Source: Thermodesulfobacteriota bacterium
Lineage (GTDB): Bacteria; Desulfobacterota_D; UBA1144; Nemesobacterales; UBA2774
Direction of reading: 5' to 3'
Assembly: GCA_963422265.1 (NCBI GenBank)
Contig: OY729416.1
Location: forward strand, 992,001-1,056,000
DNA: 64,000 nucleotides
Numbering within the stretch: the stretch's first letter is position 1; every line of letters starts with the position of its first letter. Below, in pieces: positions 2,199-61,133 of the stretch. The notes beneath the pieces were generated by a model. That model saw nothing but the letters and a program-made list of their open reading frames with translations, had not been told where the DNA came from and did not search any database. The translations under genes and the position numbers were made by a program.

Positions 2199-2681
2199 TC
2201 TAAGTATCGCCCCGCAAAGATCGCTTTGCGACCTGGTGTGCCATTTTATATTGTAGTCTTCAAATAGACACTTGAGTGCACCATTTACATCGGAATATCA
2301 GTCAGTAACCTGTGTGTTTTCATGTTCGGGACTTCTATCCCTTCTGTTTATGCTTTCAGAAGTTGCATGATGGATATGACATTCATAATGTGCTATTTTG
2401 TTTTCGTGATTGGGTCCGTTGTATCGAGACAGCCTTATGTTTTCCTTGTCCAGTATCATCACAATGCCGCATGAGAAGTTTTCTGGGTCTCTTTCGTTGA
2501 GCCGAGCAAAAACTTTCAGTAACAACTCCAAGAAAACTTCTTGCAAGAAATTTGCTTCCTTAAATTCAACATCAAAACTCCATTGCTTGCTCTGCTTTCG
2601 AATTTTAGGCGGCGTCTGTTTTATGTTTATGATTTTAGGAGTATCCTTTATCGAACCTAAAATTTTTTCTGACATCTCCAC
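2199..2681 (-). pseudogene. DUF1828 partner protein (RYNG..H..CHIH motif) with premature TGA at 2298-2300
   Basis: The frame continues after the stop as YSDVNGALKCLFEDYNI. It occupies the same position relative to DUF1828 as the gene at 44918-45364. Confidence 0.55.
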
Positions 2682-2683
2682 TA

Positions 2684-5600
2684 TTACACCTCCACCACCT
2701 TCAAACTCTCAATACCCCTATCATCTACTATTTTAACCGCGACTCTGCGGTTTTTGCCAAGCTCAAAAGGTAACGAGACTGTTCCCCTGTATGCCTCTAT
2801 CAATTCTTGGTCTATCTCGGCTTTCAGGTTTTTGGCAAGCCTTGTCCATCCACCTTTACTGTCCGCCATTGGAAAGAATACCTGACGTGGATAAAGACAT
2901 CTGCCATCATAGTCGGTGTCTAACATCCAGACTGCTATATTCTTTTCATCGCCGGATTCAAGTTTGCCGGTCTTGGTGTTGAAGTAGTCAAAGCCCCGGA
3001 TAGTGATTTGTGAATAGTTCTTAGTTGTCAGTTTTGAGTTTTGAGTCGGTAGTTTTAAGCCTTGAGCGATTTCTTCAAGCTGTAGAGTAACTTTGCTATC
3101 TCTTCGCAATTGCTCAGCAATTCCTTTAAGCTGGCTTCTCCCAGAAATCCCAAATTCCGAGAGATTATCAAAAAAGTCTCTAACTCGGCTAACGAACCCT
3201 GTGCTATCGAGAGAAATTGCAGAAATTCCTTTTTGCTTTGTCTCGCTTGTCCCTCCGCTATGTTTGCTGGGATAGAGGTTCCAGCCCTTCTCACTTGCGA
3301 GGTAATGCCATACTTCTCTTCCTTGGGAAAGGATGAGGTAGAGTAGTAAATCTTGTTGACTAAGCTGATTGACTTTCGCCAAACTATCAAGTCCCGATAA
3401 TTCCTTGAATACGTCATAACTTGCAATCTCCATATCACTAGAAACTAAAAACTCATAACTGCAGACTGCCACATCCGGTTGCCCGACCAGCCAGAAACTT
3501 TCATTGCTCGCGCGTTTTTTCTTCAGGTCATCGGTTTGCATATCGGCGTTCATTTGGACTTTGAGTAAAGTCATGCCAGTTTTTTCAGGCGACAACTCAT
3601 CAATGTCTTTTGCCGCTTCTGGATCAAATTGAAAGGCGGCAAAGATCAACATGCTCGGGCGCGGCATCAAAGTGCGCGCCTCTTCCCAGGCAAGCTCTAC
3701 CTGCCTCTGTTCAAGAGGGGCGTGTTCAGGACCGAATGAAATCACCGCGCGGTGCGGATTATACGCCGTTGCGGCTTCCTTGAATTCGTCCGATCCTGAA
3801 TCATCAGGTTTTGTTTCAGCTTCTGCGTGTAGCCAACGACAGGGGATGGGTTCGACGCGAGAGAAGGAAATATGCTGCCCGTTTTTGCCACGAATGCCGG
3901 TTTTCAGCAGTTCATCGCGCCATTCACTTTGGCGCAGGGTCTCGCCGGAGCGAGATAGAGAAGCGTCAGCTACTTCAACAGAAAGTCTTTCTCCCTCACC
4001 CTTAATCCCTCTCCCAGAAGGAGAGGGAAGCACATCGGAGATGGGTTGAACGGTTGGGGATGGAACAGCTTCTACGGTGAAAGGTCCGGTTACTCGGGCG
4101 CGTTTGTTGTCTTTCAGCGGCTGATCGTAAAGAGTTTCTGTTGCGGGAGGCTCATCATTGGCTATGGATTTCAAAGTAACGTGCGGAACTTTTTTATATT
4201 TAAAGCCACTGCCGACACCCTCATCAGGATACGCCAATTTGTAATAATCAAACGTAGCAGTCATCAACCTTTGCTTAGCGAGTGTAAGAGCCACGCGCGA
4301 GGTATCGCAGGTGATCCAGCGTCTGCCCCATTGCTCGGCAACGTAAGCAGTCGTGCCACTGCCACAGGTTGGGTCAAACACCAGATCGCCAGGGTCGGTG
4401 GTCATGAGGATGCAGCGTTCTATTACTTTAACTGCTGTTTGAACTACAAATATTTTTGTAGATTCGCCCCCTAACTTACTCCACATATTTGACAAAGGTG
4501 TTACTGGATAATCATCTAAGAAACGAACAAAACAAGGAAAAGATCCGCTTACTTCTATTCGGTTATGTTGCGTTAACCTGCTTAGCCCTTCAATGGTTGT
4601 TGTCCAATGAGTCCCTTTTCTGGGGTAATACTTTTTCCCTTCAAAACGAAAAACCTCTTCCTCTTTTCCAGATCCTTGACTACATATATCACTTAGCCTA
4701 TATAATCTTGAGCTTTCTGGGATAATACTAGGATTTTTTATTTCTTCCTTCGAGCATTTTCTACGTATGCCATCTGAATTTTCCAGTCGGTTGTACTGGT
4801 TAATACCAGCACCATGAGTTTTAGGCATAAACAATTGACGATATTTTCTTTTTGCGGACTTAATATCTTTTGAGTACCAAAGCAGAAAATCATAAATATT
4901 TCCGACAAAACTGGAAGCATCTTTTGCTGCTTGTGTAGTATATGTTATCTGTGCTACAAAATTCCTTACCCCAAACACCTCATCCATAATCTCCCGAATA
5001 TGATGCACGTTCTCGTCTGAAATCTGCACAAACACACTGCCGCTTTCCGTAAGCAATTCCCTTGCCAGCAGCAGACGGTCGCGCATATAGGAAAGGTAGG
5101 AGTGAATCCCCAGTTCCCAGGTATCACGGAATGCCTTGATAGTTTCAGGCTCTGTGGTCAAGTCTTCATCTTTACCGTCTTTGACATCACGCTTATTGAC
5201 AAATGGCTGAAAATTGCTGCCGTATTTGATGCCGTAGGGCGGGTCCATGTAAATGCACTGAACCCCCTGACTACCCCCCCCCCCCCCCCCCCCCCAATAT
5301 TTTCCTTTTGCAGCAGCGAGTTCATCACCAGTAGGGAGTCGCCCGCAACCAGTCGGTTTGTCCAGTTGTGGGAGTGTTGGTAAAACTCAATCTCCTGCCG
5401 AAGTGGAATTTCACGTTCTTGCTCAAAAAGAGGCAGTTGATTGCCGTCACCGTTTCCGTTGCGTTTTCTAACCGCTTCCACAATAGTGCGCGGGTCTATG
5501 CGGTCGTGGACGTGAAGCGATACGTTTGGCACTTCAAATGAAGTATGCTCGGCTTTCCCCGCCCATTGGAGTTGCGGGTCTAAGTGCGGATCGTAGGTAT

Positions 5601-5736
5601 AGGCCTTCTTGGCGCCCGTGTCGGGGTCAGTGTTTGGCGTTACAAGCCCTACCGGCGGGTTATTGACGCGCTGTTTGTCTCGATGTTCATAGGATTCAAT
5701 ATGTTGGCGTTTTGCCTTGGGCTTTTTCCGTGACAT
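2684..5736 (-). CDS. mod: Type III-like site-specific adenine DNA methyltransferase (Mod), frameshifted at a G22 tract
   Basis: 5' ORF (DPHLDPQLQWAGK, NRLVAGDSL) and 3' ORF (DPPY catalytic motif, DPTCGSGTT SAM motif, VKIVDDRGIESL C-terminus) join at the homopolymer. RBS GGAGGAG precedes ATG 5736. Confidence 0.9.
3001..3054. repeat. Heptamer repeat arm downstream of the four-helix-bundle gene
   Basis: Minus strand AACTACC GACTCAA AACTCAA AACTGAC AACTAAG AACTATT; complementary in pattern to the arm at 3436-3470. Confidence 0.75.
3055..3417 (-). CDS. Four-helix-bundle protein (23S rRNA IVS protein family) nested inside mod in another frame
   Basis: MTYSRNYRDLIVW...FPKEEKYGITSQVRRAGTSIPANIAEG...FLSIAQGSLAELET is a typical family sequence. 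GGAG lies about 10 nt upstream of ATG 3417. Confidence 0.92.
   Translation of the reverse strand: MTYSRNYRDLIVWRKSISLVNKIYYSTSSFPKEEKYGITSQVRRAGTSIPANIAEGQARQSKKEFLQFLSIAQGSLAELETFLIISRNLGFLGEASLKELLSNCEEIAKLLYSLKKSLKA
3436..3470. repeat. Heptamer repeat arm upstream of the four-helix-bundle gene
   Basis: Minus strand GGCAGTC TGCAGTT ATGAGTT TTTAGTT TCTAGTG; inverted relative to 3001-3054. Confidence 0.75.
3993..4028. repeat. Small palindromic CCCTCACCC..CTCTCCC..GGAGAGGG element, in frame in mod (PSPSGRGIKGEG)
   Basis: Related copies at about 5849-5870, 7168-7200, 42674-42708 and 43941-43974. Confidence 0.7.
5274..5295. repeat. C22 homopolymer (G22 on the mod coding strand)
   Basis: Counted directly. 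G20 or G23 would fuse ENIG(n) to SQGVQCIYMDPPY. Confidence 0.9.
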
Positions 5737-5758
5737 TAAGCTCCTCCTGCTAATCCTT
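5670..5758. repeat. 89-bp direct repeat (mod 5' end plus RBS), copy 1
   Basis: Identical to 7006-7094. Confidence 0.9.
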
Positions 5759-5896
5759 TATGAAAAAAGGGGATTTGGCGTTTCACATCTTGGGTTCTCA
5801 TTGATTAGTAATAGCTTGAGACTGCTATATAAAGACACACACTGCTGCTCTCTCCCAGAGGGGAGAGGGAGAAGGAAGTTGCAATTTTTACACGAT

Positions 5897-6058
5897 TCAC
5901 GGCTTTTTTGGTGGAGGCGTGTTAGTCCGCTTTTCTCCGCCGACTTCTATTTTGGGCTGGTACCCAATAAGTTGACCTTTTATGGGCTGGTACCCTTGGG
6001 TCCGGTACCCTGACTCGTGCCGTTTCTGCTGTTCATCCACAGACTTCTTCTTTATCAT
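5897..6058 (-). CDS. Small Lys/Pro-rich protein (53 aa) downstream of DUF6338
   Basis: AGGAG RBS; MIKKKSVDEQQKRHESGYRTQGYQPIKGQLIGYQPKIEVGGEKRTNTPPPKKP, with repeated GYQP. Confidence 0.55.
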   Translation of the reverse strand: MIKKKSVDEQQKRHESGYRTQGYQPIKGQLIGYQPKIEVGGEKRTNTPPPKKP

Positions 6059-6073: not shown

Positions 6074-6664
6074 TTATTTACTAAATAGTTCTACTGAAAC
6101 CATCTCGCTTGACAATATAATTATACCCTTGGTTGAAGTTCTCACACGCTCGAATCCACCATCATCATTTAGCTTCCATGCTTCTTCTAAATACAACTGC
6201 TCATCGGCAGGGGCACTTGATGAAAAAGATTTTGAATCGTAGCTTCCCGCTATTTTCGTTCCATTCTTAAGCGTAACAATAATCCAATACGGTTCTCTTT
6301 TAGAGAATACATAATCCCAGGGTTTTTGGGTTGGATGTGGGACGCCTACGTTTTGAAAGAATCGGCTAGTTCTTATAGTTTTCCATAGAAAAACCCAAAT
6401 TACCGGCGCGATAAAAAGAACGAAAAGGCAAGTCAAGTAATATATAAATCCTTGTGAGCTTCTCAAATTATATGAGTTAAAGAAAACGACCAGCGGAGAC
6501 AGCAAAGCGTAGTTTATACAACTGTATGTTATAGCCTCAACAATTTGTTTTGATGACTCTGTTTTTTCAGATGGAAAAAACAACTCGTAGGCTCTCAAGC
6601 TTACGAAGCCTGGAATAACGAATGCTATAAAAAGTATTAGTTTATCTTGTTCCCATATATCCAT
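6074..6664 (-). CDS. DUF6338 family membrane protein
   Basis: FVIPGF N-terminus, about 3 TM segments, P..WDYVF...WIIVTLKNG..IAG motif. Confidence 0.75.
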   Translation of the reverse strand: MDIWEQDKLILFIAFVIPGFVSLRAYELFFPSEKTESSKQIVEAITYSCINYALLSPLVVFFNSYNLRSSQGFIYYLTCLFVLFIAPVIWVFLWKTIRTSRFFQNVGVPHPTQKPWDYVFSKREPYWIIVTLKNGTKIAGSYDSKSFSSSAPADEQLYLEEAWKLNDDGGFERVRTSTKGIIILSSEMVSVELFSK

Positions 6665-7005
6665 CTTCTTCCTCCCCGTTTACGCCCAATAAACTACAAG
6701 TAGGCACATTGCAATGTGCGCTTATTGAATTTTACTTCTTTTTGTAGTTATATAAATAGCAGAATAAGCAATACTCCCCAAGCAAGAAGGTGTAGGTTCA
6801 GCGCGTATATTAGATAAAAGAGAGTGGGAGAGAGAAAAAAGCGTTAATTGATTCCCCATAATTGCACGGCTATACCCGCATGTTTTCTTTGTCTTGATTC
6901 AATTACATTGTGCTCCCCATTCGAAATACTCACCTACGTTTTTGTTAATAGCGTAATTGGTGTGAGACAAGATCTCTTTTTTCTTCTCAAATGGCTGTTG
7001 ACCTA

Positions 7006-7094
7006 GCTGTTTGTCTCGATGTTCATAGGATTCAATATGTTGGCGTTTTGCCTTGGGCTTTTTCCGTGACATTAAGCTCCTCCTGCTAATCCTT
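7006..7094. repeat. 89-bp direct repeat (mod 5' end plus RBS), copy 2
   Basis: Identical to 5670-5758. Confidence 0.9.
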
Positions 7095-7198
7095 CTGTGA
7101 GAGATAATTTACACAATAAAAGCGTGTAATGGGTTATTTACATTTGTTAGAATTTGTTATAAGCATACCCTCACCCTTAATCCTTCTCCCAGAGGGAG

Positions 7199-7276
7199 AA
7201 AGAAAACGATCAGCGGAGACAACAACGCGTAGTTTATGCAATTGTATGTTATAGTCTCAACAATTTGTTTTGATGA
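7199..7276 (-). pseudogene. Diverged fragment of the DUF6338 gene
   Basis: Matches 6479-6556 with a few substitutions. Confidence 0.75.
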
Positions 7277-36422: not shown

Positions 36423-39400
36423 TTAAGAACTCCACTCCTCAGCGAAAAGTTCCGCTTGTTTTAAGATGTTGTCCGTTGCTAGCTTTTGCTCGTCTGGTGG
36501 GTAACCGTATCGGCGTAAAACCTTTTTGACAATCAAACGAAGATTTGCCTGAACGCTCTCCTTTATCGTCCAATCAATTGACGCTTCGGCTTTTACTCTT
36601 TGCGCCAACTCTTGGGCGAGCTTGCGCAACGTTTTGTCTCCCATTACCTCCCTAGCACTGTCGTTCATAGATAAGGCGTCGTAAAAAGCTATCTCATCCT
36701 CGCTCAGACCAAAACCTTTAACTCGTTCATCAGAAGCCTTAATCTCTTTGGCGATTTCTATCAATTCTTCTATGATCTGCGCCGTCGTGAGCAGGTTGCT
36801 TTGATATTTTCTTATCGCGGCGTCTAGCATTTCCGATAATCTTTTGCCCTTGATGAAATTCTTCTTCATTCTGGTTTTGACCTCATCACTCAGAATTTTC
36901 CTTAGTAACTCTAAGGCGAGGTTCTTGCGCTCCATACCGCGCACCTCATCTAAAAACTCATCCGAAAGAACGGAAATATCCGGCTTTTTAATCCCAGCCG
37001 CGTCAAAGACGTCAATTACGCCTTCAACGACAAGCGCTTTATCAATAATCTGCCTTATCGCAGTTTCTACTTCGGCGTCGCTCTTGCCACCCCCCACAGG
37101 CTCAAACTTAGTCAGTCGAGCCTTTACCGCCTGAAAAAACCCAACTTCCTCCTTTAATTCCATCGCCTCGCGGCTTGGGACGGAAAGCGCAAAAGCCTTT
37201 GATAGCAGACTGACTTGCTTTGTAAACCTATTTTTGCCATCTTCTAAAGCCAGAATATGCTCTTGCGCTTGTAAAATAATCGTCATTTTTCCCCTTGCGT
37301 CCACCGAGAAGTATGGCTTATAATCAAAACCATTAAACATCTGAGCAACAACCTCACCCTTCTCCATCATCACATCAATCGCCTGCGATTGCTTAAAGGT
37401 AGGAGAGCCTTTACCACTGCTTTTGGTGTAATCGGCTAACGCCCGCTTTAAGTCTGAAGCTATGCCTATATAATCAACGATGAGTCCACCGGGCTTGTCT
37501 TTATAAACCCTGTTGACGCGGGCGATTGCCTGCATAAGATTATGCCCCCGCATCGGTTTATCAATATACATAGTATGCAGGCACGGGGCGTCAAATCCCG
37601 TAAGCCACATATCCCTTACTATTACTAGCTTTAGCGCATCACTAGGATCCTTAAACCTATTAGCAAACCATCTTCTATCTTGCCTTTTAGTATTATGTCC
37701 TTGCCAGCTTTGAGGATCGCTTGAGCTAGAAGTCATCACAACTTTTATAGATCCCTTGTCTTTATCGGCATGGCGCCAATCGGGGCGGAGCTTAACTATT
37801 TCTTCATACAGTTCAACGGCTATGCGCCTACTCATGGCGACTATCATCCCTTTACCCTCAAAGACTTCCCGTCTCGCTTCGAAATGCTCAATAACGTCTT
37901 GGGCAACGGTTTTCAATCTATCTCTATGTCCGACTATTGCCTCTACACGTGCCCATTTAGCCTTTGTTTTCTCCGTGGCAGTGAACTCCTGACCCTCGAT
38001 TATCCGATCAACCTCCTCATCTAGCTTATCCCTTTCCTCGTCTCTCAAATGCACCTGAGCAAGTCGTGATTCATAATAGATGGCGACGGTCGCCCCATCC
38101 TCCACAGCTTGCTGCATATCGTAAACGTCAATGTAGTTTCCAAAAACCGCCGGAGTAGAAGCATCCTCTTTCGCAATTGGCGTTGCGGTAAAACCAACAA
38201 AGGAAGCATTTGGCAACGCGTCCCTTACATACTTGGCAAAGCCATATTTCGTAAATGCCCCGTCCTCTCTCTCTAGGGTCCTAGCCTTAAAACCATACTG
38301 ACTGCGGTGTGCTTCGTCAGCGATAACGACAATATTCTTCCGCCCTGAAAGAAGTTCAAACTTTTCCTTACACCTCTCAGGGGAGAATTTTTGAATAGTG
38401 GTAAACACTATTCCACCCCCCGCCGTCTTTAGAAGGTTCTTCAAATGAGCGCGGCTGTCAGCCTGCGAAGGCTCTTGCCTTAATAATTGCTTGCCGCTGG
38501 CAAAAGTACCAAATAGCTGATCGTCAAGGTCGTTGCGGTCCGTAATAACCACTATGGTAGGATTCCCCATACGCGAATCTACAATGAGCTTTCCTGCGTA
38601 GAACAACATAGAGAGAGATTTTCCACTCCCTTGCGTGTGCCACATAATGCCGGCTTTACGATCTCCCATTGGTTGCGCGTCAATCGTAGGCAGTCCATAG
38701 GCGGCAGGGTCCTCCCTAACCGCCCCTGAATTGTCAGATGAAGCCCTGATAGTTGACTCTACCGCCTTGTTCACAGCGTGATATTGATGATAGGCTGCGA
38801 TTTTTTTGATAGTAACGACTCTCTTTATGCCACCCGCCCCGCTATCTCCGTCGGGTGAGGAGATCAACCCTTCAGTGAGCTCAGAAGACCCTTTCATTGA
38901 TTTCTCAAACACCGTAAAGTGCCTAATTAAATCCAAAATCACGTCTGGGCGGAGCATTCCCTTTACAAGCGTTTCTATTTGCGGTGTAGTTCCAGCGTCC
39001 TCCTTTACGCCATCAACCGCTCTCCATTCCACAAAACGTGACCATCTAGCAGTCAGAGAACCAACTTTGGCGTCAAGACCATCAGAAGTTACCAAAACGC
39101 CGTTGTAGCAAAACAGGCTAGGAATAGCATTTTTATAGTTTTGAAGCTGGTTAAATGCTTTTTGAACGGTTGCCTTTTCATCCACTGGATTCTTTAACTC
39201 AATCACCGCCAACGGCAAGCCATTCACAAATAGGACAACGTCTGGACGCCTAGTAACGTTACCGTCAACAACGGTTCGGCTTTGCTCAGCAGCTACGGTA
39301 AATTGATTGCAAAAGACAAGATCGTTGTTTAGAGGATTGTCAAAATCAATAAGCCAAGCGTTATCGCCGACGGCGTCTTCTCCTTTCTGGTACTCAACGC

Positions 39401-39680
39401 TAACCCCGTCAGTCAACATCTGATGAAACGCCTCGTTGCTTTCCACTAGACTTTGACTTGGCAAGTTTAATACCTCATGCAAAATCTGCACCCGCGCGTC
39501 TTGTGGAATAAGCGGATTGAGCTTATCAATCGCTGCTTCCAGGCGTGCGCGCAGGACGACGTCGGACAAGCTGACCCGTTCGCGCTCCTGCTCTTCTGGT
39601 GAAAGGTATGAGTAACCCTGATTTTGTAGAAGTTCTATGACGAAGTTTTCAACGTCGGATTCATATATAGTGGTGCTCAT
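36423..39680 (-). CDS. hsdR: Type I restriction endonuclease subunit R
   Basis: [46 protein letters not shown]. Confidence 0.97.
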
Positions 39681-41588: not shown

Positions 41589-42485
41589 TTAGGGCTTGGA
41601 GCCGTATTCATAATCGCGTCCGATTTTCCAAACCTCTTTTTCTCTAAATGCCTGTATAGTCTGACGACGGGCGGCGTTGGTAACGGCTGGAGCCGAAAGT
41701 CCGTTCTGTTTGATATAATCCGACAGTCGTATAATGCTCTTTCCTTTTAAGTAGGTTATCCGCTTGTGCAACGATTCCAGCAAAGCCAAAGCTAAAATTC
41801 TTTCCATTATTTTCGCCTGCTTCTTCTCGCGGTAATCCCCAAAGGCTTCATAGTATATGCTCTTTTCCTTGTTGCGAATTATGACGCGTGGAAATCCTAA
41901 CTCTAACAACTGAAAGTTAATAATCACTCGCCCTATACGACCATTGCCGTCGCAAAACGGATGGACGGTCTCAAAGTCCAAATGGAACTTGGCGATTTTA
42001 TCTAAAAAATAACCGTCTAGGTCGTTTGAATAGGTAAATAGAACGTTACCGATCATTCGCTCAACATGCTCCGGTGGAGGGGCTATATGAGCACCAACCC
42101 GCACGTATTCACCCTTTTGTCGAAATCGCCCGGCAATAGAGTCGTCAATACCACCCATAAGCATTTTGTGTAAAAGAAGGATGAGTTCCTCGGTCAGACT
42201 TTCTCTTTTAACCTTGCTACGCTTATAATCAATTACCCGAGCTAAGTTTCTCGCCTCAAACACTTCCCGGACAGAGACGTTACGGGATAATTCCATCTCT
42301 AATAAAATTTTCTCCGTCTCTTTAAGCGTTAAAGTGGAGTTTTCTATGGCATTTGAGTTATAGATGCTCTCCGGTGCTTCCGCCTCGTCAATCAAGGCTA
42401 AAAGAGACTCCTTGCCGCTTGCTAAGGAAGCATATTCTTCCCGCAATGCGCTAATTCTTTTTCTAATAGATTGCCGAGTAGCCAC
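41589..42485 (-). CDS. Fic family protein
   Basis: HPFCDGNGRIGR; SNAIEN motif. Confidence 0.93.
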   Translation of the reverse strand: MATRQSIRKRISALREEYASLASGKESLLALIDEAEAPESIYNSNAIENSTLTLKETEKILLEMELSRNVSVREVFEARNLARVIDYKRSKVKRESLTEELILLLHKMLMGGIDDSIAGRFRQKGEYVRVGAHIAPPPEHVERMIGNVLFTYSNDLDGYFLDKIAKFHLDFETVHPFCDGNGRIGRVIINFQLLELGFPRVIIRNKEKSIYYEAFGDYREKKQAKIMERILALALLESLHKRITYLKGKSIIRLSDYIKQNGLSAPAVTNAARRQTIQAFREKEVWKIGRDYEYGSKP

Positions 42486-42555
42486 AATGAACAGTTAAAA
42501 GATAGTTTTAAGTTTACAGTTTTGAGTTGACAGCTAACTAACAACTATCCACTTG

Positions 42556-42583
42556 ATTATATAAATTCACTTGAATATGTCAA
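42556..42583 (-). promoter_or_regulatory. Consensus sigma70 promoter upstream of fic
   Basis: TTGACA-N16-TATAAT; duplicated at 43821-43848. Confidence 0.75.
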
Positions 42584-42810
42584 TAAAGCGTGAAGAGAAG
42601 TGTTAAAGAGGGGTATATTCACGGGGTTTTTGTCTGAACTATGAGAAGGGGAATGACGATGGAGACAAAAGAAGCCCTCACCCTGTCCCTCTCCCAGAGG
42701 GGAGGGGTCTAAACTGTGATTGGTAGGATTAAAGGACGGACTTTGGCAACTAATCACTGATCACTGTCAATTATCAAACTAAACTTCATAGTATTCCCAA
42801 AATCATTAAA

Positions 42811-43688: not shown

Positions 43689-44123
43689 AAGGAAGCATAT
43701 TGTTCCCGCAATGCGCCAATTCTTTTTCTAATAGATTGCCGAGTAGCCACAATGAACAGTTAAAAGATAGTTTTAAGTTTACAGTTTTGAGTTGACAGCT
43801 AACTAACAACTATCCACTTGATTATATCAATTCACTTGTATATGTCAATAAAGCGTGAAGAGAAGTGTTAAAGAGGGGTGTATTCACGGGTATTTTGTCT
43901 GAACTTATGAGAAGGGGAATGACGATGGAGACAAAAGAAGCCCTCACCCTGTCCCTCTCCCAGAGGGAGAGGGGAAAAGAAAGTCTAAACTGTGATTGGT
44001 AGAATTAAAGGATAGACTTTGACGACTAACCGCTGACCACTGTCACTTATTCAAATTAACCTTCATAGTATTCTAATAATCATTACTTCCCCACTCATCA
44101 GCTTAGGCAATAAGGTATCCCGA
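43689..44123. repeat. Direct repeat unit, copy 2, ending in hsdS 3'-end remnant D (RDTLLPKLMSGEV, about 44085-44123)
   Basis: Offset 1265 bp from copy 1 at its left end. Confidence 0.85.
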
Positions 44124-45727: not shown

Positions 45728-47242
45728 TTAATAAATATGTTTGAATAGTTCCACTTCTTCTTTAGAAATAACAAATGGCATTATTTTAATCTCTTCCTTG
45801 TCGATTATGTCTGCGTTACTTATTACTTCTTTTAAATCCTTTTTAAGCCAATCTGAACACCATAAATCAACTTTATTATCTAACACCTTTTTACATAGTT
45901 TCTCATCATACTTTTTAGAATCATCCACTTTTAAGGTTATCCTTTGCAACCATATTTGGAGATGACCTATGTTCGGTAGTCTTTCAAACTTTGTTACTAT
46001 TTTGTCAATTATTAATTTTATATCCTTTTGTTCTAATGAATCTACTTGTTTTAATGAACGTATGAACTTACTAAGAATGGCTATTGAGATTGGGTAAGTT
46101 TTTGGGTTCTTCATCGCAATGTCTGTCATAATACTTATAAGGACTTTTAGATTTTTACTATTTTTCACCACTATATTACTGTAAAATTTGTGTAATTCCT
46201 TGGTGACAGTCCCAGAATTCGGATACTTGTCCGCAACATCACTAATAATGTATAACTTCTCTTGTAGAGTCTTTTTCAATCCTGTTTTATTCGTTGTTAT
46301 CCAGTAAAGTTTGTCAGGTTTGATTGAAGCTTTTACCACATTGTTTGACCTTATTGCCTTGCCTTCATTGAGGTTAAATCCCAATTCCGCAAGAACTTCA
46401 GTTAGATTTTTTATTATCTTCCCTGCCGTTTGTGGATTATTAACGAATATTCTGTAATCATCTCGATATCTCAATATCTGAAAATCTTTATCTTGATCTT
46501 GTTCAGAGTTAATTTTCTCCCGTAACTTTAAGTCCGCGTACCCTAATACAATCTCAGCAACAAAATCCATCAATACGCTTCCCTGCGGTATGCCGTTTGT
46601 CTGCCCGTAAGACATTGACTGTATGGATTTATCAATCTGATTTCCAAGTAGTTTCGAATCCGTGCGTTTCTCTTTCGCACATTCTTTTCCGTGAATTGCC
46701 CATGAGATAGAATGCGTGTAAATGGAACCGTAGCAATCGGTTATATCTGTTGTGTATAAGTACTCGTAATCTAAAGCTAACTCAATTGATTTCTGTTCCA
46801 CTTCGTCAAACCAATGCGTGATTTGCTCTGCCTTGTCTGTTTGTTCACTTTCGGATACAACAGGTAAACTGAAGCATTTAATTTTTTCATTTTCTCTAAA
46901 CTTCTCAAAACGGCCTTTTAGTGTTTTCCAATTAGTTTGTTCCGTAATCTTATGGACTAAAGCAACATACAATACTGGATGGATTAGTTGAATGGGCCGC
47001 CAAGCATACTGACCACTCTTGTTGGTCAATAGCTTATGATTAACCTTTTCATAATTGCTTGGTTTACTACCATTTGATGAGTAAAAATCTTTTAAAGGTT
47101 TACCATCCAACTCTTTTGAAATATCTTTTAACAATTCGGAAAATGTAAAATATGGTGGCAAATCAAGAGTGCAGTAACTTTCCTTTTTTAAAAGAAACTC
47201 ACGCGCCTCACTTTCTAATAAATCCAGAATGCTTTTTCCCAT
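45728..47242 (-). CDS. Stand-alone defence-type reverse transcriptase (Abi/UG-DRT-like)
   Basis: DITDCYGSIYTHSI.WA, GIPQGS, YRDD catalytic motif, helical C-terminal extension. Subtype unconfirmed. Confidence 0.85.
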   Translation of the reverse strand: MGKSILDLLESEAREFLLKKESYCTLDLPPYFTFSELLKDISKELDGKPLKDFYSSNGSKPSNYEKVNHKLLTNKSGQYAWRPIQLIHPVLYVALVHKITEQTNWKTLKGRFEKFRENEKIKCFSLPVVSESEQTDKAEQITHWFDEVEQKSIELALDYEYLYTTDITDCYGSIYTHSISWAIHGKECAKEKRTDSKLLGNQIDKSIQSMSYGQTNGIPQGSVLMDFVAEIVLGYADLKLREKINSEQDQDKDFQILRYRDDYRIFVNNPQTAGKIIKNLTEVLAELGFNLNEGKAIRSNNVVKASIKPDKLYWITTNKTGLKKTLQEKLYIISDVADKYPNSGTVTKELHKFYSNIVVKNSKNLKVLISIMTDIAMKNPKTYPISIAILSKFIRSLKQVDSLEQKDIKLIIDKIVTKFERLPNIGHLQIWLQRITLKVDDSKKYDEKLCKKVLDNKVDLWCSDWLKKDLKEVISNADIIDKEEIKIMPFVISKEEVELFKHIY

Positions 47243-48343: not shown

Positions 48344-54938
<6,595 letters not shown>

Positions 54939-56302: not shown

Positions 56303-57745
56303 TTAGCTCTCTATTATCACATCCCCACTCATCAGCTTCGGTAATAGGGTATCTCGCAGACTCTCTAGGGTGCGGATTTGGGATTGGTTAGTTTGGGATT
56401 TGTGAAATATAGGATTCACCACGCTATTGAATCTAACTAAAGTGTTTATATCAGGTTTAGGTACTTTGATTTCCATTATACTACCATTATTAACATCTGG
56501 TTGGACTGTCCCACTTATTAAACTATCTTTGACGTTCTGAAAATCCTGACTATAGACAAAACACCAAATATAATAATGGCTCTCTTCCGTTGTTTTTAAT
56601 CCCGCAAAGCCCGTTGATAAAACCGTATCGGCAACTGATTGTTTTGAAAATGCGTCAAACATCAAAACTTTCCTGACCCCTCCTTTTTTGGCAAACCACA
56701 CTGAATAATCTACTGGTTGCATATTTGCTCTAGAGGGTCTGCTACCATATGTTATCTTAGTACCCATACCTTGGATTTTCCCTCCCTGCACATCAGCGGT
56801 TGCAATATATGTTTTCTCTCCTTCAAATTTATGTATTCCACTACTCATTATTTTTGATAACTCAGAGTTGCCGAGAGATACTTCCTCCCACCCTTCATCT
56901 CTATCCTCCACAAAGTACTTTCTGAACAGGGTTTGTGCCATGTTTTCTAGTGTTTTGTTTTGGCGGTAGAGAAGTTCTATTGTGTCGTCAAGACTGGATA
57001 ATACTTCGGCAATCGCCTTTTGTTTGGGAAGTGGGGGGAGAAAAACTTCCAAATTTTCAATATCAGACTTACTGATTGATGAAAAAATACTTCCAGATGA
57101 ACTGCTGTTAAATTGATTTGCAGAAAATTTGAGCAAATAAAAAAGAAAATCTCGCTCACCACTTCTCATTCTCAGTCCAGCATTTCCCCGACCAATAGAG
57201 CATTTCTGCCTCGTGAAATTGACATCACCAACTGGTGCTCGCACGCTTAGCAAAAGGTAGTTGGGCTCTATAACCTTCTTGGGACTAGAACAATAGACTC
57301 TTGGGGTAACGTATCTATAACCAAAATCAACTACACCTTGATAAAATGGTAATCCTTCTCCATTTTCATTATAAGTTTCGGATTTTGGAGACTGCCCCAT
57401 AATTACATCCACAACCTCCCCCAACCTCACTTCTCGCCAACCTTTCCTATAAATAGTAATTCCATATCTATCAATGTGCTTCTTCACTTCAGGGCTGGTT
57501 ATGCTCTCATAAGAAACAAAGTCAAAGAAGAAAAGCAAATTGGTATCTTCCTCAAAACAAGTTTTGAGTTTTGCTGCAAGTGAGTAGTCTGCTTCTTTTT
57601 CTTTGATAGCAATATCCACATCAGAGGCTTCCTTAAATGTATCCATAGCTCTTGACCCAAAGAGTACCGCTTCATCAATTTTTTTGTATGTAGAAATGAT
57701 TTTGATAATTTCGTTCAGTTGAGATTCTGAAAGCCCATATTTCAT
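56303..57745 (-). CDS. hsdS: Type I specificity subunit with N-terminal minimal nucleotidyltransferase domain
   Basis: Residues 1-100 contain LFGSRA...SDVDIAI; then W....LG TRD1, PPLPKQKAIA..L..LD conserved helix, TRD2, LRDTLLPKLMSG. Confidence 0.92.
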   Translation of the reverse strand: MKYGLSESQLNEIIKIISTYKKIDEAVLFGSRAMDTFKEASDVDIAIKEKEADYSLAAKLKTCFEEDTNLLFFFDFVSYESITSPEVKKHIDRYGITIYRKGWREVRLGEVVDVIMGQSPKSETYNENGEGLPFYQGVVDFGYRYVTPRVYCSSPKKVIEPNYLLLSVRAPVGDVNFTRQKCSIGRGNAGLRMRSGERDFLFYLLKFSANQFNSSSSGSIFSSISKSDIENLEVFLPPLPKQKAIAEVLSSLDDTIELLYRQNKTLENMAQTLFRKYFVEDRDEGWEEVSLGNSELSKIMSSGIHKFEGEKTYIATADVQGGKIQGMGTKITYGSRPSRANMQPVDYSVWFAKKGGVRKVLMFDAFSKQSVADTVLSTGFAGLKTTEESHYYIWCFVYSQDFQNVKDSLISGTVQPDVNNGSIMEIKVPKPDINTLVRFNSVVNPIFHKSQTNQSQIRTLESLRDTLLPKLMSGDVIIES

Positions 57746-59612: not shown

Positions 59613-61133
59613 TTATAGATTTGACTTTATATTGTTTAAATTCTCCAAAATCCGCCTGTTAAGCTCCGCCTCTTCTTTAAGCTGCCCCTCAAACTCCGCC
59701 TTTAACTCCGCAAACCTCTCGCCAAAATCAAAGTCATCTTCCGTCTCCACCAAGCCCACGTAGCGACCTGGACTCAGCACGTAATCAAGCTCCCGAACCT
59801 TATCTATCGCAACGGAAGCGCAGAAGCCCGGAACGTCCTTGTATCCTCCCCCATCCTTCCGCCACTGATGGTAAGTATCGGCGATTTTCGCAATATCCTC
59901 ATCTGAAAATTCCCTTGTGCGCCTATTGATTAAATGCCCTAGATGCTGAGCGTCAATGAAAAGAATCTCTCCCAACCGATTTCTGTCGCCGTTAAAGCTG
60001 TGTCGCTTGTTGGAAAGAAACCACAGACAAGCCGGTATTTGGGTATTGAGAAATAGCTTCGTTGGCAAGTTGACGATACAATCAACAAGTCCTGCGTCCA
60101 CGAGATTCTTACGAATTACGTCCTCACCAGAAATTTTAGAAGTGAGTGAGCCCTTGGAAAGCACAAAGCCAGCAACCCCTTTTGGCGACAGGTGATGCAC
60201 GAAATGCTGCACCCAAGCGAAGTTTGCGTTTCCAGCCGGGGGCTTGCCATATTTCCATCTCCCGTCGTTTTGTAGCATCTCGCCGCTCCAGTCGCTATCG
60301 TTAAATGGTGGATTGGCGAGAATAAAATCCGCTCTTAGGTCGGGATGAACGTCTTTCAAGAACGATCCCTCGCCGTTCCATTTCACCTGCGAGCCGTCAA
60401 TTCTGCGAATGGCAAGATTCATTCGGCAAAGGCGGTAAGTAGTTTGATTGCTTTCCTGTCCAAAAATGGAAATATCGTTAAGCCGACCTTGGTGTTCACT
60501 TACAAACTTTTCGCTCATTATGAACATTCCACCACTGCCACAGCACGGGTCATACACGCGCCCCTTATACGGCTGGATCATTTCAACAAGCAACTGAACA
60601 ATTGACTTTGGCGTATAAAACTGCCCACCCTTCTTGCCTTCCGCTAAAGCGAATTCGCCCAAGAAGTATTCATAGACCCTGCCGAGAACATCCCTTGATT
60701 TCGCCGCTTCATCACCGAGCGCAATATCGCCAATAAGGTCAATCAACCCGCCAAGCGAATCCTTAGCGAGATTTTGCTTTGCATAAACAATGGGCAAAAT
60801 ACCCTTGAGAGTAAGATTCTCCTTTGCGATCGCATCCATAGCGCCATCTAAGTCCTTACCTATAGTCGGCAGTTTTGAGCGCGAGCGCAAATACGACCAG
60901 CGAGCTTCCTTAGGAACCCAGAATACGTTTTTTGCGGCGTATTCGTCCTTATCTTCTGGATCAGAATATTCATGCTCGCCCTTGCGTTCCTCTAGGCTAG
61001 CGTAAAGCTCTTCAAAAGAATCAGAGATGTATTTGAGGAATATCAAACCCAACACGATGTGCTTGTATTCCGCAGCGTCAACGTTCTTGCGCAGTTTGTC
61101 CGCCGCTTTGAAAAGCTGAGACTCAAAACTCAT
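59613..61133 (-). CDS. hsdM: Type I methyltransferase subunit M
   Basis: [27 protein letters not shown]. Confidence 0.97.

Follow-up and report, generated by a model that had tools for sequence, protein, structure and literature searches.

In this study we analysed a 64,000-nucleotide window of contig OY729416.1 from a Thermodesulfobacteriota bacterium and describe a short gene that lies entirely within a longer one, on the same strand (Table 1). The host gene, mod, encodes a type III-like Mod DNA methyltransferase. PF01555 is the only domain that an HMM search finds in its main ORF, and homology searching returns thousands of Mod homologues. Of 6 related loci examined, 4 have ResIII genes downstream of mod; no res gene was found in this position within the window, which ends at an AAA_15 ATPase gene. 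The mod gene is itself split by a long homopolymer. By arithmetic from the coordinates, 20 or 23 bases in place of the (C)22 run would restore its frame; if the assembly of this run is right, the open frame of the window mod is currently without selection. A second palindromic footprint in mod, unrelated to the element described below, marks a site at which some Mod homologues carry an in-frame DUF559 endonuclease domain.

The nested gene encodes a four-helix-bundle (4HB) protein of the S23p / 23S rRNA intervening sequence (IVS) protein family. It runs from an ATG at 3417 to a stop codon at 3057-3055, and an alternative GTG at 3438 would give 127 aa. The protein exceeds the cut-offs of PF05635 (138.7 bits against 33.8, E 1e-40), TIGR02436 (134.5 against 24) and NF008911 (148.6 against 137). 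Its AlphaFold2 model consists of four long helices (pLDDT 94.9) with TM scores of 0.88-0.97 to 2GSC (XCC0516) and 0.74-0.88 to 2RLD (BT_0352), and this agreement in fold stands alongside a sequence match at E 2.3e-23. A homopentameric ring is reported for XCC0516 in PMC4990558. Motifs similar to the Shine-Dalgarno-like GGAG of the window precede the gene in 31 of 53 open-frame relatives and in 14 of 22 free-standing relatives. A promoter scan found no sigma-70-like site upstream of the 4HB gene, which suggests that the gene relies on the mod transcript. The first-pass annotation of this DNA had described an intact 120-aa 4HB gene with its own ribosome-binding site, a mod frame that stays open across it and inverted heptamer arms able to pair around it, and all three descriptions hold.

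Table 1. Features of the mod locus, with positions counted from the first base of the window
Feature	Position	Strand	Remarks
mod main ORF	2684..5248	minus	854 aa; N6/N4 DNA methylase, type III-like Mod; PF01555 E 4.6e-30
mod N-terminal piece	5158..5736	minus	192 aa, other frame; aligns with N-termini of full-length homologues
(C)22 run	5274..5295		G22 in mod sense; frameshifts mod and separates the N-terminal piece from the main ORF
Second, unrelated in-frame palindromic footprint in mod	4007..4027		CCCTCTCCC-N4-GGAGAGGG, peptide PSPSGRGIKGEGE
Host-frame read-through segment	2996..3469	minus	158 codons, stop-free; between GQPDV (3484-3470) and GFDYF (2995-2981)
Whole inserted element, arm to arm	3008..3473	minus	about 466 nt; heptamer arms; borders from P0008/L035 comparison
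5' arm	3437..3473	minus	five tandem heptamers NNNNAGT/AGTTNNN; mod frame peptide (V)AVCSYEFLVSS
3' arm	3008..3057	minus	six or seven heptamers NNNAACT; begins inside the 4HB stop codon; mod frame peptide LKLPTQNSKLTTKNYSQ
4HB gene (S23p / 23S rRNA IVS protein family)	3055..3417	minus	120 aa + TAA; frame +1 relative to mod
GGAG, Shine-Dalgarno-like	3428..3431	minus	10 nt 5' of the 4HB ATG

Heptamer arms and the open host frame

The two arms are inverted with respect to each other, with 73-80% complementarity over 25-30 nt. They pair with each other in the minimum-free-energy fold, and their duplex is predicted at -43 kcal/mol (z -3.4 against shuffles). The folding that had been proposed as a check thus gave a divided answer, since the arms do pair but the whole 501-nt region is as stable as its shuffles (z -0.56), and total stability is no evidence. 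Rfam searching of positions 2400-6000 (E <= 1) placed no family on the arms and returned no rRNA and no intron family. A weak match to whalefall-1 in the same search falls on a hairpin other than the arms.

Strict period-7 arrays are present on both sides in 32 of 75 intact elements. For 21 of these 32, the left consensus heptamer and the reverse complement of the right one differ by at most one base, compared with 114 of 992 pairings in the cross-element control. Complementarity is kept despite changes of the heptamer itself, which can be ACAGATG, CCGTTTT, AAATGGT, ACGGGAG, AGTGGGG or AGTTTTT. We used this heptamer-consensus test because the corresponding RNAduplex control (own arms -47.3, arm of a foreign element -39.6 kcal/mol) separates poorly, many elements sharing the AGTGG heptamer class. 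One locus (L079) has arms of GACAGAT, as in the published Coxiella IVS. Heptamer number also varies: one element (P0013) has three additional heptamers, 21 nt, in frame, and another (L048) is shorter by exactly 14 nt, or two heptamers, than L065 and L044. The maintained complementarity of the arms would be superfluous for simple read-through and points to a role for the stem in RNA or in single-stranded DNA.

The open mod frame across the insert does not look like an accident. A rough estimate in the first-pass annotation had put the chance of a stop-free alternative frame below 1%, and a permutation test agrees with it: when the synonymous codons of the 4HB gene were shuffled in 500 trials, the mod frame stayed open in 0.2% of them, and the expected number of stops was 4.1. 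The probability of an open frame is 0.002 for the window element and has a median of 0.038 over 53 elements. We compared 86 close 4HB copies (80 genome loci plus window). Frame +2 of the 4HB gene is stop-free in 59 of these 86, and in 49 of the 86 the host frame stays open for 60 codons or more on each side. These 49 lie within long host ORFs, for the most part those of Mod homologues with the insertion where the window Mod has it. Among free-standing intact copies, by contrast, all 22 have between 1 and 13 stops in the frame that nested copies keep open, and frame +1 of the 4HB gene is always closed (minimum 4 stops). The concern that comparable insertions might usually stop the host frame is therefore not borne out, and the suggestion of a tolerated in-frame insertion of roughly 150 aa with dual coding gains from these counts.

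The two overlapping frames are under different constraints. At equal 4HB divergence, nucleotide identity is highest at the second codon position of the 4HB frame, equal or slightly lower at the first and far lower at the third, in nested and free copies alike. Host-frame peptides share 0.27 identity between nested pairs, against 0.22 for the virtual frame of free-standing copies. By these codon-position patterns, purifying selection on sequence acts on the 4HB frame, and the host frame is held stop-free and nothing more. The two genes also decay independently of each other. Two loci have a truncated 4HB gene and a host frame that is still open (L038 and L077), and two others have an intact 4HB gene in a host that is frameshifted at or right beside the arms (L001 and L048); the host frameshifts of L019 and L034 likewise lie at or right beside the arms. 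AlphaFold2 models the insert within Mod as a helical excursion flanked by two long strands, with a pLDDT of 80-92 across two helical blocks of the out-of-frame peptide. A peptide modelled with such confidence could perhaps be more than a passive passenger. A Foldseek search of the PDB with the C-terminal Mod model including the insert gave nothing at E <= 0.001.

Presence, exchange and hosts of the element

Among 146 Mod homologues the insertion site is filled in 88 and empty in 58. The empty site was to be defined by such an alignment, and relative to an empty hairpin of 19 aa the filled state has a net gain of 139 codons, or 417 nt. It had also been considered that Mods without the nested gene might hold the same residues here; they carry an unrelated hairpin of 15-46 aa, which is 19-20 aa long in 51 of the 58. 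A tree of the 146 homologues requires at least 13 changes between filled and empty, of which at least 8 are forced by well-supported branches, and the window Mod itself belongs, with at least 95% support, to a clade of 34 empty and 3 filled members. Mods with flanks 90-93% identical can have cassettes that are only 35-37% identical, and the window cassette is 70-74% identical to cassettes from Mods of 60-62% identity. By these comparisons the element is gained or lost at exactly this site of Mod and exchanged between Mod homologues, as expected of the stealth mobile element, concealed in an open host frame, that the first-pass annotation had put forward.

The nested arrangement is found in many bacterial phyla and in several other hosts. 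These include MmeI-like enzymes, a Ser/Thr kinase with the insert between HRDLKPxN and DFG, histidine kinases with the insert within HATPase_c, an ABC ATPase and a 3414-aa surface protein. The MmeI-like hosts include that of locus L072 from Stieleria tagensis TO1_6, a cultured bacterium. One well-supported planctomycete 4HB clade brings together MmeI, histidine-kinase and kinase hosts, and related copies also occupy intergenic DNA. At E <= 1e-3 a profile of the read-through peptide matches 739 cluster representatives, of which 348 also pass E <= 1e-10. Within the best 149 census matches, 58 contain a Pfam domain; DNA methyltransferases or restriction-modification (RM) proteins make up 46 of these 58, a bias for which the choice of query may in part account. 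Searching with a planctomycete read-through peptide against longer proteins gave 1210 candidates, which are unscored and count as weak evidence only.

A tblastn search with the 4HB protein found 25 plasmid records, mostly cyanobacterial, with 22 matches annotated as four-helix-bundle or S23 proteins and the others comprising one 'hypothetical protein', one match without a feature and one unannotated record. No annotated host gene covers the match in any of the 25, and no nested copy was found among them. Rfam searches of 12 free-standing loci returned no rRNA or other family, and no copy there lies within a 23S gene.

Explanations for a gene within an open frame

We consider it probable (about 0.7) that the insert is an ORF-compatible selfish element of the 23S rRNA IVS type which is translated straight through inside mod. 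The element consists of complementary tandem-heptamer arms around a 4HB gene (S23p/PF05635) with its own ribosome-binding site, and its place of insertion is the tip of the 19-aa beta-hairpin in the C-terminal part of the type III-like Mod. It is ORF-compatible in that its length is divisible by three and that no stop interrupts the frame which begins one base before that of the 4HB gene, so that ribosomes translating mod should continue through. The arms would then be read as two long strands, the 4HB region, out of frame, as a helical or disordered excursion of about 140 aa, and a separate 4HB protein would be made from the internal start. Spread among Mod sites might proceed by recombination through the conserved flanks, in a homing-like manner, and jumps into new genes might depend on a putative trans-acting activity. 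The heptamer arrays may also slip by 7 nt and thereby break or restore the host frame. In the literature we found no description of such an element read through inside a protein-coding gene.

A broader joint reading is doubtful when taken as a whole. It holds that IVS-type elements are widespread gene-carrying mobile DNA with niches in rRNA, between genes and inside protein-coding genes. In the last of these niches they would have evolved a fully dual-coding body, without stops in frame -1 and with a length in multiples of three. Their arms would encode a beta-ribbon stalk that permits translation through and, by slipping 7 nt at a time, would also switch the host gene. The elements would home to fixed sites in RM methyltransferases across phyla, and an Avd-like protein would support RNA-mediated spread, either by retro-homing or linked to RNase III.

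The pairing of the arms raises the question whether the element is mainly removed from the RNA. RNase III would then cut the paired arms, free the 4HB mRNA and destroy or strongly down-regulate the mod mRNA, with read-through as a minor outcome. The architecture equals that of IVS elements excised by RNase III (PMC4990558). Arm complementarity survives changes in heptamer sequence, the arms pair in minimum-free-energy and duplex predictions, and the 4HB gene, lacking a promoter-like site, would depend on the mod transcript. However, constant cutting would leave both the stop-free frame and the length divisible by three unselected, and the frame is open in 59 of 86 close copies and in 0 of 22 intact free-standing ones. 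The whole-region fold, moreover, is not unusually stable (z -0.56), and coupled translation should impede the pairing of arms 380 nt apart, which also counts against removal. That the host frame has persistently been selected to stay open speaks against removal as the principal fate, which we regard as improbable; RNase III cleavage of the arm stem is possible. Translational bypass is not needed, since the host frame is open.

Somewhat less probable still is a domesticated module, in which heptamer slippage, a frameshift at 7 nt, would phase-vary Mod and other hosts and the 4HB protein, the inserted domain or both would regulate the methyltransferase. This would agree with the host frameshifts at or beside the arms in four loci (L001, L019, L034 and L048, the last with its missing 14 nt), with the 21 nt of extra in-frame heptamers in P0013 and with the differing heptamer numbers of Coxiella strains mentioned in PMC4990558. 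The 46 DNA methyltransferase or RM proteins among 58 annotated carriers and the confidently modelled insert peptide point the same way. Yet the element also lies between genes and within unrelated ones, its presence is patchy even in close Mods, and its host-frame peptide is scarcely more conserved than the virtual frame of free-standing copies. In metagenome-assembled genomes, moreover, such frameshifts may be assembly errors or plain decay. That the insert is an ordinary lineage-specific Mod domain, with the 4HB ORF arising by overprinting or by chance, might be thought because the insert occupies a shared position in many Mod homologues and its model is folded. We reject this as very improbable: structures have been solved for members of the large independent family to which the 4HB protein belongs, codon-position conservation tracks the 4HB frame, the same cassette is found in unrelated hosts and free-standing between genes, and near-identical Mods swap cassettes.

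If the read-through element is indeed what lies in mod, the 23S rRNA IVS and its S23p/four-helix-bundle protein would have a second habitat, and one that can be tested. The element would be a naturally occurring example of two frames that share one strand completely, over about 360 nt, and whose dual coding is retained across phyla. Selection acts on the sequence of one frame and, in the other, against stops alone, which would make the element a clean system for the study of constraints on overlapping genes. Gene callers report the host as one long protein and miss the nested gene, so these elements are systematically hidden. Their mostly RM methyltransferase hosts and their frame-breaking arms suggest that they may affect the switching or tolerance of defence systems. 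That Mod, kinases and HATPase domains accept insertions of 140 aa at the tips of beta-hairpins could furthermore be useful in protein engineering.

Comparison with known systems

Phasevarions, which depend on phase-variable type III mod genes, have short simple tandem tracts near the 5' end of mod whose copy number shifts the frame. The window mod resembles them in containing repeats that can shift its frame, namely the heptamer arms and, separately, the G22 run. Unlike those tracts, the heptamer repeats are the arms of a putative mobile element, and switching is here only a possibility. The Avd protein of diversity-generating retroelements (DGRs) is related in fold to the nested protein, with TM scores of 0.79-0.87 to 4DWL and to DGR ribonucleoprotein structures. 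The matches to Avd families are weak and below their cut-offs (NF033474 23.7 against 80 bits; PF22296 32.7 against 40). No reverse transcriptase was found among the ORFs neighbouring the 4HB gene, and the only RVT_1 ORF of the window (45731-47242) lies 42 kb away.

Inteins and self-splicing introns with homing endonuclease genes are like the mod element in their patchy presence at a fixed conserved site, in their horizontal exchange and in sparing the host. The mod element differs in that it has no splicing domain, intron RNA family or encoded endonuclease and would be harmless through its open alternative frame. The Rickettsia palindromic elements, according to PMC10969869, lie in frame within many unrelated protein genes and are read as an extra peptide. 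They and in-frame MITEs share with the mod element the state of palindromic selfish DNA kept in frame in unrelated ORFs. But the Rickettsia elements are about 150 bp long, in-frame MITEs of this type about 100-150 bp, and they have no gene of their own, whereas the mod element, at about 466 nt, carries a conserved 120-aa gene, codes twice over about 360 nt and spans many phyla.

The nearest relatives are the 23S rRNA IVSs with an S23p ORF, known from Coxiella, Leptospira and others. The Coxiella IVS is described in PMC4990558 as 428 nt long, with a terminal stem of 28 bp and an S23p ORF whose start codon is preceded by 2-3 GACAGAT heptamers, in a number that varies between strains. The mod element agrees in protein family, in a size of about 430 nt and, on the same source, in a terminal inverted-repeat stem and tandem heptamers just 5' of the ORF. 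These published repeats and this stem recur in the mod element, which ties it to the 23S IVS more firmly than was known to the first-pass annotation. The same text presents the function and mobility of IVS and S23p as unexplained since the early 1990s. What sets the mod element apart is its place in a protein-coding gene, with no rRNA match in positions 2400-6000, and a stop-free host frame of a length that is a multiple of three, so that translation, rather than RNase III excision, could accommodate it.

The nested gene and the state of mod in the window

The first-pass annotation had placed an intact four-helix-bundle (4HB) gene inside the open frame of mod, and our searches confirm this arrangement (see table). 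The nested protein scores 138.7 bits against PF05635 (S23p; cut-off 33.8) and 134.5 against TIGR02436 (cut-off 24), and its sequence matches XCC0516 (2GSC; E 2.3e-23). Modelled with 40 aligned relatives, it is predicted to form four long helices (pLDDT 94.9), with TM-scores of 0.88-0.97 against 2GSC, 0.74-0.88 against 2RLD and 0.79-0.87 against the DGR protein Avd; it falls short of the Avd-specific models. GGAG lies 10 nt upstream of its ATG, and a promoter scan found no promoter-like site upstream of the gene.

Synonymous permutation of the 4HB codons kept the mod frame free of stops in 0.2% of 500 trials (expected number of stops 4.1), so the open frame is real and no accident, in agreement with the small chance first estimated. 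The arms, heptamer arrays that had been thought able to pair, are indeed inverted and 80% complementary over 25 nt; they pair in the minimum-free-energy fold, with a duplex of -43 kcal/mol (z -3.4). The whole 501-nt fold is of ordinary stability (z -0.56). No Rfam family was found over the window arms.

Positions of features in the window
Feature	Position	Strand	Remarks
mod main ORF, 854 aa, N6/N4 DNA methylase	2684..5248	minus	PF01555, E 4.6e-30
Nested 4HB ORF, 120 aa	ATG 3417 to TAA 3057-3055	minus	one base out of frame (+1) in mod; PF05635, TIGR02436
Host-frame read-through, 158 codons	3469..2996	minus	stop-free, GQPDV to GFDYF
5' arm	3473-3437	minus	five heptamers
3' arm	3057-3008	minus	six or seven heptamers; begins inside 4HB stop codon
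GC-rich palindrome	4007-4027		also 43953-43973
(C)22 run	5274-5295		divides mod main ORF from 192-aa N-terminal piece
Perfect 89-nt direct repeat	5670-5758 and 7006-7094		first mod codons and upstream region
DUF6338 gene	6074-6664		
Second defence island	35000-61200		type I RM genes
hsdR	36426-39680		
Direct duplication	42424-42640 and 43689-43905		spacing 1265 bp; 217 nt at 97%, more matching blocks
Reverse transcriptase ORF	45731-47242		
(C)56 run	48423-48478		
Ig-repeat ORF, 2112 aa	48600-54935		285-bp tandem repeats
hsdS fused to nucleotidyltransferase	56306-57745		
hsdM	59616-61133		

Mod would be in frame if its (C)22 run had 20 or 23 bases. The second homopolymer, (C)56, is followed by a GC-rich segment (0.54-0.62; surroundings about 0.35-0.47), which makes a sequencing or assembly artefact a real possibility; run and segment may be artefactual or chimeric, or else foreign DNA in which the tracts are real. 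This segment contains the Ig-repeat ORF. If the (C)22 tract is real, mod is now off or phase-variable. ResIII genes lie downstream of mod in four of six related loci examined, and we therefore regard the host family as type III-like; in the window, mod is followed up to the window edge by a 127-aa ORF, a DUF1828 protein and an AAA_15/21 ATPase.

Other insertions were also seen. Mod reads the palindrome CCCTCTCCC-N4-GGAGAGGG, which overlaps a weak whalefall-1 Rfam match (E 0.14), in frame as PSPSGRGIKGEGE. At the equivalent site six Mod homologues (P0027, P0053, P0054, P0062, P0066 and P0071) have an entire DUF559+MTES_1575 endonuclease domain inserted in frame between peptides resembling PSPSGRGIKGEGE, a second kind of read-through insertion. 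The 89-nt repeats bracket the DUF6338 gene, suggesting that the start of mod has undergone an insertion or a duplication. The direct duplication holds a one-sided heptamer array (AGTTTTA AGTTTAC AGTTTTG AGTTGAC) with no complementary arm or 4HB gene nearby. Between the RM genes of the second defence island lie AAA_15/21 ATPases, two Fic proteins, a DUF1828/DUF1829 protein and the only reverse transcriptase ORF of the window, 42 kb from the 4HB element.

Relatives in other genomes and their hosts

A genome scan with the 120-aa protein, one genome per species, gave at least 488 confirmed relatives. The best 80 loci were kept (49-71% identity), and span Chloroflexota, Planctomycetota, Nitrospirota, Bacteroidota, Cyanobacteriota, Pseudomonadota, Acidobacteriota and others. 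Their 85 matches and the window gave 86 copies for comparison. The host frame (+2 of the 4HB gene) is stop-free over the entire gene in 59 of these and contains stops in 27; at least 60 open codons are found on each of the two sides in 49 of the 59. The survey thus found further nested cases, and the arrangement is general and not limited to the window.

Mod homologues are the host of 48 of the 59 open-frame copies, with the C-terminal match beginning at GFDYF every time; the C-terminal domains of these subfamilies share either about 75-85% or about 34% identity with that of the window Mod. The other hosts are four MmeI-like type IIL enzymes, a Ser/Thr kinase with the element between HRDLKPANILL and KISDFG, two hybrid histidine kinases with the element inside HATPase_c directly ahead of the DTGVGI box, one ABC ATPase, a 3414-aa surface protein, and the hosts at L008 (without a Pfam domain) and L070. 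A profile of 44 read-through peptides, the host-frame translations across the element, was run against 1.84 billion cluster representatives and matched 739 proteins at E <= 1e-3 and 348 at E <= 1e-10. Among the best 149 matches, the window's own excluded, 91 have no Pfam annotation; the others carry Eco57I / MmeI / N6_Mtase (29), PF01555 (13), DUF1156 (4), histidine kinase (3), protein kinase, nSTAND1 and PF05635 (2 each), and DUF559, Polysacc_synt and DUF3516 (1 each). DNA methyltransferases or restriction-modification proteins make up 46 of these 58 annotated carriers, a bias that may be partly circular because the profile was built mainly from such hosts.

At several loci two 4HB genes lie close together (L046 6737-7300; L072 4367-4729; L052 4869-5210; L067), either a nested one plus a free-standing neighbour of the host gene or a free-standing pair separated by 3.6 kb; those of L067 are at 3195-3563 and 6868-7236. 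The 4HB genes and arms of L023 and L025 are identical, and their genomes bear the labels Anaerolineae and Acidobacteriota, reflecting either a very recent transfer or a binning error.

Constraint on the two frames and exchange at one site

Frame +1 of the 4HB gene is open in none of the copies (minimum 4 stops). The host frame is interrupted by 1-13 stops in every one of the 22 intact copies that stand free, and under codon permutation openness has a median probability of 0.038 over the 53 intact copies with an open frame. Among pairs matched at 50-60% 4HB protein identity, nucleotide identity at 4HB codon positions 1, 2 and 3 is 0.62, 0.67 and 0.39 in nested pairs (n=623) and 0.58, 0.67 and 0.35 in free-standing pairs (n=90), with host-frame peptide identities of 0.27 and 0.22. 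These values make the 4HB frame the primary coding frame everywhere. The host frame is constrained against stops and little else. T at the 4HB wobble position before AA, AG or GA occurs at 0 of 1520 positions in the 53 open-frame genes, which is true by class definition; its share is 18.8% in the rest of these genes, and free-standing genes have it at 12.5% of such positions.

The two genes decay independently. The host frame is intact and the 4HB gene truncated in L038 and L077, and the host mod is frameshifted at the arms or directly adjoining them in L001, L019, L034 and L048, with an intact 4HB gene in L001 and L048. At about 5944-5976, L048 is shorter than L065 and L044 by exactly 14 nt, or two heptamers, and the homologue P0013 has three additional heptamers (21 nt) with the frame kept. 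Additional heptamers are also seen in the 3' arm of L019.

The empty site was sought by aligning Mod homologues, and it was found. The best 120 of 8000 scored homologues were kept, and the alignment has 146 rows: 119 database proteins (the window's own excluded), 26 Mod ORFs from genome loci and the window. Between both anchors, 88 rows are filled (150-219 residues) and 58 empty (15-46 residues; 19-20 aa in 51); the database proteins alone divide into 61 and 58. In its empty form the site has a 19-aa hairpin with the pattern xVExIxKGExxGKWxVEVx, which is not related to the insert. On a FastTree phylogeny with the insert columns left out, the state changes at least 13 times, at least 8 of them forced by branches with at least 95% support. 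The window Mod belongs to a well-supported clade in which 34 of the 37 rows are empty and 3 filled, and it lies beside its closest relatives among the 146, P0002 and P0007 (73% identity), both of them empty.

Flank and insert identity correlate weakly over 3828 filled pairs (Spearman 0.18). P0004, P0005, P0006 and P0008 are 90-93% identical to the L035 Mod in the flanks and 35-37% in the insert. The window insert shares 70-74% identity with the inserts of P0010, P0006, P0008, P0004 and P0005, with flanks at just 60-62%. In the P0008/L035 alignment, identity drops directly past GQPDV and resumes at YSQVTIHGFDYY. Such mismatches are the signature of horizontal replacement at one fixed site. At a coarser level element clades track Mod subfamilies, which is compatible with spread by recombination through homologous flanks.

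In an AlphaFold2 model of Mod residues 480-854 (88 aligned sequences; mean pLDDT 76.8; segment numbering +479 gives ORF numbering) the arms are predicted as long strands (segment 112-124 and 261-278) and helices are predicted at 132-173 and 210-251 (pLDDT about 80-92), with low confidence for 182-207. Foldseek found no PDB match for the segment. Together with the kinase and HATPase_c cases, the model suggests that the element is seated at hairpin tips, both ends emerging side by side. Six empty Mods (P0100, P0095, P0104, P0108, P0091, P0119) have other small in-frame inserts at the 19-aa hairpin tip (PSPQPSPTGRGSKGEG; ...IASPxVRND...), the site corresponding to window 2996-3469, and this loop may be a general landing place for palindromic repeats.

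Nature of the element and comparable systems

Tandem heptamers upstream and their complement downstream are found in nearly every copy, nested or free, and the heptamer varies between elements. Under a strict period-7 criterion, arrays flank 32 of 75 intact elements on both sides; in 21 of the 32 the left consensus is within one base of the reverse complement of the right one, against 114 of 992 cross-element comparisons. Complementarity that survives sequence change argues for selection on pairing (in RNA or single-stranded DNA) or for a mechanism making inverted copies. No transposase or endonuclease is encoded by the element.

The best supported reading is an ORF-compatible element of the type found as intervening sequences (IVS) in 23S rRNA genes, selfish and tolerated by being translated through. 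Ribosomes would translate the host frame straight across it, and the 4HB protein would be made separately from its own start; 31 of the 53 open-frame copies have a Shine-Dalgarno-like motif, as do 14 of the 22 free-standing ones. RNase III may cut the arm stem and lower Mod expression, but this is not the sole fate, since the open frame would otherwise not be maintained. The patchy presence, the cassette exchange and the proportion of open frames support the original idea of a mobile element tolerated in an open host frame. We conclude that this element is of IVS type, occupies a new habitat and is fully dual-coding, and that such nested elements are widespread and hidden from standard annotation.

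A full-text search found no report of 4HB/IVS elements inside protein-coding genes; subscription journals were outside its coverage, so that 'not found' differs from 'not published'. No rRNA gene surrounds the free-standing copies in 12 loci scanned. Among the analogues, a MITE review describes Rickettsia palindromic elements inserted in frame (PMC10969869), a study of the TAACTGA heptamer repeats of Beggiatoaceae and cyanobacteria leaves a 4HB gene unmentioned in the text examined (PMC4679880), and a DGR paper states that PF05635 resembles Avd (PMC10053308). The closest analogues found include the Coxiella IVS, which is described as 428 nt long, with an S23p ORF, a 28-bp terminal stem inside which RNase III cuts, and two or three GACAGAT heptamers ahead of the start codon, their number variable between strains (PMC4990558). 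GACAGAT is also the arm heptamer of L079, one of the loci in our scan. By that description, the Coxiella IVS and the 4HB elements share the same build of S23p ORF, heptamers and terminal stem.
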